Program-made: the position numbers and the translations under genes | Shown here: positions 48,155 to 48,448 of the stretch, piece by piece | How the letters are laid out: each line of letters begins with the position of its first letter | Position numbering within the stretch: the first letter of the stretch is position 1 | The notes under the pieces: generated by a model | Told to the model about the DNA's origin: nothing | What the model saw: only the letters and a program-made list of their open reading frames with translations | Database searches by the model: none | Assembly (NCBI GenBank): GCA_964016885.1 | Contig: OZ024743.1 | Location: 311,426,001 to 311,490,000 of the forward strand | Direction: 5' to 3' | Origin: Eledone cirrhosa | Lineage: Eukaryota | Length of the DNA: 64,000 nt

Positions 48155-48448
48155 TAATCTGTTGATCGATTGGTTATTGATTAGGCGATACCCGCTGATG
48201 AAGCCGCATAAGCCGATTGTGCATTGTTGCATAATATATGCAGACAGATAGTGCACCTTACTGCTGCATTAGTGCGGCAGAAACTCGAGTCCGGGAAGCT
48301 TATAGGCACCCGTTTTACGTGTGTTGTGTTGAGGCAAATAACTATGTGTATACTCTGGTAATGTATCTTACATTGCCCATTGAGTGCGCTGAGATACAAC
48401 CGGTACTGGCATTGATAAATATGGTGGGCCCGTCAACCCTTATTATTT
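48155..48448 (+). mobile_element. Penelope-like pseudo-LTR fragment inserted in (TA)n
   Basis: Unique ~290 bp bounded by pure (TA)n on both sides; contains a hammerhead. Confidence 0.7.
48191..48295 (+). ncRNA. Hammerhead ribozyme motif with expanded helix II
   Basis: Helix I CCCG/CGGG, CTGATGA (48195-201), helix II GCCGCA/TGCGGC, GAAA (48280-83), palindromic ACTCGAGT, GUC triplet. Confidence 0.8.

Follow-up and report, generated by a model that had tools for sequence, protein, structure and literature searches.

The window, a 64,000-nt stretch of Eledone cirrhosa contig OZ024743.1, contains a real hammerhead motif at positions 48191 to 48295 of the forward strand. The motif lies within a copy of a non-coding, dispersed repeat, here called family A, and this copy, which sits between two (TA)n tracts, appears to be a decayed insertion. 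A second, long-armed hammerhead (family B) is present further downstream. The features are:

48095 to 48156, no strand: left flanking (TA)n tract, (TA)31, the likely insertion target
48157 to 48448, + strand: family A copy, 292 bp, 5'-truncated, about unit positions 544-835 of a ~840-bp non-coding dispersed repeat with a fixed 3' end
48191 to 48194, + strand: helix I, 5' strand, CCCG, partner of 48292-48295
48195 to 48202, + strand: core CUGAUGA (CTGATGA at 48195-48201) and one extra A (48202)
48203 to 48209, + strand: helix II, 5' strand, 7 bp with 48272-48278 (GCCGCA at 48203-48208)
48210 to 48215, + strand: unpaired 6-nt linker of the three-way junction, which differs between subfamilies
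48216 to 48235, + strand: hairpin a, predicted, 8 bp; G.U becomes A-U in 18/18 sister copies
48238 to 48269, + strand: hairpin b, predicted; U.U becomes G-C in 13/18 sister copies
48272 to 48279, + strand: helix II, 3' strand (TGCGGC at 48273-48278), and the extra A (48279) preceding GAAA
48280 to 48291, + strand: core GAAA (48280-48283), palindrome CTCGAG (48284-48289) and GTC (48289-48291), with the predicted cut after C48291
48283 to 48290, + strand: 8-nt palindrome ACUCGAGU, predicted intermolecular helix III
48292 to 48295, + strand: helix I, 3' strand, CGGG
48449 to 48622, no strand: right flanking (TA)n tract, (TA)87
57505 to 57628, + strand: family B long-armed hammerhead with a 97-nt arm, a three-way junction, palindrome ACGGCCGU and a predicted cut after C57624

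The motif contains the type I hammerhead core (C3-U4-G5-A6-N-G8-A9, G12-A13-A14, A15.1-U16.1 and H17), and each core and helix sequence named in the original prediction is present where it had been placed. That prediction also described an expanded helix II on a type I hammerhead of the Penelope-like-element type, which is supported: the 6-bp helix II of the window motif encloses 64 nt, and 62-67 nt are enclosed in family A. The unpaired A on either side of helix II (48202 and 48279) had been overlooked. The G10.1-C11.1 pair adjoining G12, a conserved pair (PMC4209133), is absent in family A and is replaced by an A.A apposition. U.U or C.A appositions beside the core are listed for Hydra and PLE-X1 motifs (PMC8557442), and a U.U apposition is tolerated (PMC3088659, PMC7229834). 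Folding z-scores for the arm are -2.8 in the window copy and -3.8 and -5.6 in the subfamily majorities. The motif had been expected to escape standard searches, and it does: Rfam yields no match across the window at the gathering threshold and none of relevance at E<=10 within 47400-49400, and the arm is far beyond the 7-17 nt spacer of the published descriptor (PMC8557442).

With the 292-bp window copy as query, the 3.0-Gb genome yields 2,923 first-look candidates, and the 40 that were scored are 96-100% identical. The exact core pattern of family A has 495 matches genome-wide (control, 0). Family A copies end at the same 3' position and differ in how far they reach in the 5' direction; a full unit is ~840 bp long. 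Among the best-scoring loci, which are not a random sample, TA-rich sequence follows 76/81 free 3' ends, and an upstream partial copy precedes 27/47 unit starts. Such a partial tandem, with the hammerhead inside, constitutes a pseudo-LTR arrangement; partial tandems and pseudo-LTRs are normal for Penelope-like elements (PMC8557442). Partial tandems are the only arrays among the loci examined, none extending beyond about two units, and the complete-unit tandem arrays by which non-LTR retrozymes are recognized are absent from the family A loci. The longest ATG open reading frame (ORF) in the unit is 95 aa, and none of the Penelope-like proteins tried shows similarity to the unit. Unit positions 27-117 (for example, L057:1530-1620) resemble an intron: in both subfamilies this 91-nt segment keeps splice-like donor, branch-like and acceptor signals. 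None of the loci examined contains a spliced copy of this putative intron.

A small sample of the genome's elements contains no autonomous RT-GIY-YIG partner that shares termini with family A, and comparison of the unit with 13 Hydra-type loci gives no local match at E<0.7. Neptune- and Penelope-type elements, considered as partners through a GIY-YIG family search, lack similarity to the unit. Pieces of Penelope-like ORFs beside family A copies in loci L031 and L049 are separate insertions, divided from these copies by TA tracts. A search for a third family A subfamily returned one ordinary copy, and homology of the family A arm to other arms was rejected (the best z of many comparisons being 2.8). 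An 80%-identical family A fragment (unit positions 465-559) also lies at window 29427-29521.

The minimum free energy (MFE) fold of the family contains helix I and a 7-bp helix II (P 0.98); the latter closes a three-way junction, whose other two branches are an 8-bp hairpin and a long one. Two family copies, when cofolded without constraint, form a predicted dimer hammerhead, having helices I and II in each strand and a helix III of 8 bp between the two molecules. Between 48249 and 48250 the window copy is missing 5 nt, which build the tip of hairpin b in the family, and this deletion weakens its predicted fold. In a 115-nt fold of the window copy, helix II has a P of 0.43, and in its cofold the 8-bp duplex is retained and helix II is lost. 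Within helix II the original prediction had drawn two nested stems, GTGCATTGT/ATAGTGCAC and TGCAT/ATGCA. These can be drawn and are present in a 131-nt MFE fold, yet that fold has no helix II, and forcing the TGCAT/ATGCA stem costs ~9 kcal/mol. The GTGCATTGT/ATAGTGCAC stem is continuous in the window copy because of the 5 nt lost there; two of its pairs are lost in 17 and 18 of the 18 sister-subfamily copies. Thus, the inner nested stems as first proposed are probably wrong.

Evidence from the copies themselves comes from a comparison of the main subfamily with a sister subfamily, whose majority sequence was built from 36 pieces. The core had been expected to be conserved relative to its flanks, and it is: between subfamilies, 0/27 positions in the core, helix I and helix III differ versus 45/241 in the mid-unit. 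There are also no differences in the 40 positions immediately upstream; the remaining counts are 9/111 for the motif, 34/300 for the 5' end and 14/152 for the 3' end. All nine differences in the 111-nt motif are compatible with the junction fold. They comprise a G-C to A-U change in helix II, a U.U to G-C change, a single-sided G.U to A-U change and four unpaired positions. Pairs were counted on 38 real copies, namely 20/36 distinct main-subfamily copies and 18/21 sister copies, three with indels having been excluded; the double change in helix II is present in 16/18 of the sister copies. Only 1/37 pairs in family A has changed on both sides, which is below the shuffle mean of 2.1, and covariation here amounts to about three evolutionary events in one subfamily split. 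Whole-structure scores of the junction fold and the nested fold are alike (0.065 and 0.070) because both folds include helix II, so that only per-pair counts and energies tell the two apart. The subfamily changes, which bear on the covariation check that had been proposed, fit helix II and the junction and leave the nested inner stems unsupported. A G-to-T change that disrupts a helix II pair is common to 12/62 family A copies; since it is shared by so many, the variant likely still spread.

Family B is unrelated to family A in sequence and identical to it in junction topology. In family B, 7/36 pairs have changed on both sides (0/500 shuffles), and its palindrome changes in concert. In a possible pseudoknot between the junction linker and the sequence 5' of helix I, GGC would pair with GCC; in family B this pairing is intact in 89%, with no double change and no covariation.

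Long arms are widespread in this genome. Other long-armed motifs are present in the flanks of family A loci, and a core pattern with a gap of 72-100 nt has 12,844 genome matches (control, 472), compared with 5,415 (control, 831) for a gap of 8-30 nt. Either pattern detects a motif only if its palindrome has a four-base centre, which leaves other minimal hammerheads out of these counts. The long-armed motifs number roughly 12,000. A strict hammerhead finder, applied to 400 kb of evenly spaced genome, yields 19 matches versus 0.1 per shuffle: 15 with short arms, one with a 48-nt arm and three with arms of 92-97 nt, a length never observed in shuffled matches. A perfect palindrome is found in 28/30 of the first long-arm loci, in five different sequences, and in 25/33 sequence clusters; 18/30 of these first loci pass both helix tests. 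In metagenomes, 0/116 of the pattern matches listed pass the helix tests, and for this reason these matches serve as a chance control. Within this one genome helix II extends from 2 bp at one extreme to ~100 nt at the other, and its arms, which reach 97-107 nt, are branched or contain repeated internal loops. The expanded helix II is no isolated case: long arms outnumber short ones among the genome's hammerheads with 8-nt palindromes.

Several other hammerheads lie in the window or in the loci retrieved. Window 24935-25210 contains two inverted copies, with overlapping heads, of another motif whose arm is long (97 nt) and whose palindrome is ACGAUCGU, and minimal short-armed hammerheads with a 6-nt palindrome are found at 26275 (-), 26357 (+) and 26773 (+). 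A hammerhead-like motif with a 36-nt arm is present as four copies in inverted pairs at 27467-28252. In locus L092, hammerheads with a 50-nt arm (positions 5700 and 6159) lie 1.7-2.1 kb 3' of a Neptune-type ORF.

Some long-armed families are associated with autonomous elements. In L191:2972-6266, family D motifs with a 90-nt arm flank an RT-GIY-YIG reading frame that is interrupted once. This ORF carries RWK, DKT, CxCX5C, CxxC and CxH; RWK, DKT, the CxCX5C linker and CxxC/CxH, together with (TA)n targeting, are the stated Hydra diagnostics (PMC8557442, section 11). Related ORFs precede the motifs of families C, F and several others on the same strand, and these families have Hydra features by similarity; the motifs thus lie 3' of the ORFs. 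Pfam finds nothing in the Hydra-type proteins. For family A, which has no ORF, the applicable Hydra traits are TA targeting and hammerhead style only. Families A, B, C and F have an intact helix I. In family D (L191:2972-6266; L146, L151-L153) helix I is absent, the bases after the cut being complementary to 7 nt within the arm, and family E has a poor helix II beside the core; catalysis may for these reasons have been lost in some families.

Arms of the divergent families share a recurring element. Two AWU/AG internal loops 7-9 bp apart are present in 11/20 arm representatives (divergent long arms with the doubled loop include those of L147, L149, L155, L179-L181, L184-L186 and L190), in which the stems have changed and remain paired; each was found in 0/200 shuffles, a test that is not independent because the motif was defined by eye on the identical sequences. 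The doubled loop is weak in the family A sister subfamily (8/11; 2/200 shuffles) and absent from family B. Little was gained from alignment-based folding over the divergent families E-K.

The motif belongs to a known kind, the Penelope-type type I hammerhead, and its long, branched helix II sets it apart from the published examples compared here. Hammerheads of the Hydra clade (Craig et al. 2021, PMC8557442, File S2) resemble family A in being type I, in having a palindromic AC..GT helix III, often with helix II flanked on each side by an additional nucleotide, and in their (TA)n targets, and they lie 3' of the ORF, as in the autonomous families of this genome. However, Hydra loop 2 in File S2 is <=10 nt, versus the 62-67 nt of family A; the longest loop in the whole of that table is 34 nt, in a non-Hydra motif flagged as deviant, and the 'half cores' of Naiad are 35-50 nt apart (PMC8557442). 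The minimal metazoan Penelope hammerheads (Cervera and de la Pena 2014, PMC4209133) share with family A a 4-bp helix I, a 7-bp helix II, an extra nucleotide after A9, a palindromic helix III, a dimer model and mostly dispersed, truncated copies. Unlike these, family A does not place G10.1-C11.1 directly beside G12, and its helix II bears a three-way junction. Animal non-LTR retrozymes (PMC7229834; bioRxiv 10.64898/2026.07.22.740005) are likewise non-coding, contain a type I hammerhead and are proposed to be non-autonomous Penelope derivatives. They are ~300-bp multimers, whereas family A is an 840-bp unit found as dispersed, 5'-truncated copies and partial tandems; in addition, family A probably lacks the canonical contact between loops 1 and 2. 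In the discontinuous Clec2 hammerheads (PMC2950038) a large insertion also hides the motif from pattern searches, but the search that found them permitted insertions within loops 1 and 3 of ribozymes in mRNAs, while the insertion in family A is in helix II of a retroelement. The literature searched, within the accessible portions of its papers, contains no report of a 60-100-nt or branched helix II in a Penelope hammerhead, which is not proof of novelty since most subscription papers lay outside that search.

The motif is probably a type I hammerhead in a truncated copy of a non-coding repeat, which would itself be a non-autonomous Penelope-like element of Hydra type; helix II is predicted to close a three-way junction, and slow cleavage involving two copies is predicted. 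A Hydra-type protein would copy family A RNA in trans, starting from a fixed point ~155 nt beyond the cut site, and the copy would then be inserted into (TA)n. Every hammerhead-bearing family A copy has been read through the cut site, sometimes twice, and upstream partial copies begin at the predicted cleavage site in 0/27 cases and 5' of it in 10/27. Because of this, the template would be an uncleaved or re-ligated ribozyme, which reverse transcription would read through. Cleavage would need two copies paired via the palindrome and would be slow. Such read-through agrees with a Poseidon element in which the hammerhead required protein for cleavage and insertion did not depend on cleavage (PMC11167929), and with the low dimer activity of minimal motifs (PMC4209133). 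Since related motifs have helices II of 2 bp, the long arm is unlikely to serve chemistry and would more likely be a handle for protein binding or docking; a role in protein or tertiary docking is our best guess.

The same observations bear on other explanations. That the fold is a hammerhead with little or no catalytic activity, retained solely as a signal recognised by the protein of the element, is unlikely, even though family D, which lacks helix I, still flanks near-intact ORFs, helix II is broken in 12/62 family A copies, truncations do not pile up at the cut site and cleavage is dispensable in vitro for another Penelope-like element (PMC11167929). The core, the GUH triplet and the palindrome are retained across unrelated families, the palindrome changes in concert and helix I is intact in four families (A, B, C and F), all of which speak against this reading. 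We give still less weight to the idea that the arm is neutral sequence in a tolerant loop, where any stable fold would suffice and the arm would have no function of its own. It would account for a helix II that spans 2 bp to ~100 nt in one genome and for family A and B arms that show no relationship with one another or with other arms. However, the arm is no more variable than its flanks (9/111 for the motif versus 45/241 for the mid-unit), and 11/20 representatives retain the doubled AWU/AG with changed stems, which 0/200 shuffles did for each, albeit for a motif that had been picked out by eye in these very sequences.

It is highly improbable that family A is a retrozyme-like circular RNA, in which an efficient hammerhead would cleave tandem transcripts into 840-nt monomers that are circularised and copied round more than once. 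The cut site is indeed read through, sometimes twice, and the unit falls within the 600-1000 nt range of plant retrozyme circles (PMC5680766). Animal retrozymes, however, are ~300-bp tandem arrays with canonical loop contacts (PMC7229834); family A arrays are at most about two units in the loci examined, and partial tandems are usual in Penelope-like elements (PMC8557442).

Beyond the preferred reading of a slowly cleaving type I hammerhead in a Hydra-type element copy, a broader proposal can be made, which we regard as tentative and on balance doubtful. Hydra-clade elements of this lineage may have turned helix II into a modular, 50-107-nt protein-binding arm that recruits the RT-endonuclease and gates cleavage; there would then be ~12,000 hidden ribozyme-aptamer hybrids, and Penelope hammerheads thought to be absent elsewhere may have long arms. 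Within this proposal, and sharing its doubtful standing, the arm would take the form of a doubled AWU/AG loop in autonomous families and of a three-way junction in non-coding parasites like family A.

Penelope hammerheads cleave slowly and depend on protein to do so, and insertion in vitro does not require their cleavage (PMC4209133, PMC11167929). The genome offers a natural series of helices II, from 2 bp to 100 nt, together with protein-coding elements and a recurring internal loop, in which it is testable whether such a motif acts as a ribozyme, serves as a handle for protein or does both. A descriptor with a length limit can overlook the majority of a hammerhead class in a genome; calls of 'no hammerhead' for Penelope-like clades therefore merit a renewed search.

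The remainder of the window contains other elements. Positions 1-20506 are occupied by a non-LTR retrotransposon of 5,840 bp, repeated ~3.5 times head to tail, which encodes a 642-aa ORF1 and a 1,150-aa ORF2, the latter containing endonuclease, RT and zf-RVT domains; between adjacent full copies there are 2 and 5 differences in 5,378 bases. A broken, RT-bearing non-LTR element is found at 59657-61773 (-). The 444-aa open frame at 33332-34666 (+) has no Pfam match and has similar pieces in L184; we take it to resemble the end of a retroelement protein. Just downstream of the family A copy, at 48649-49035, lie two adjacent copies of an abundant short repeat, which presumably resembles a tRNA-derived SINE.
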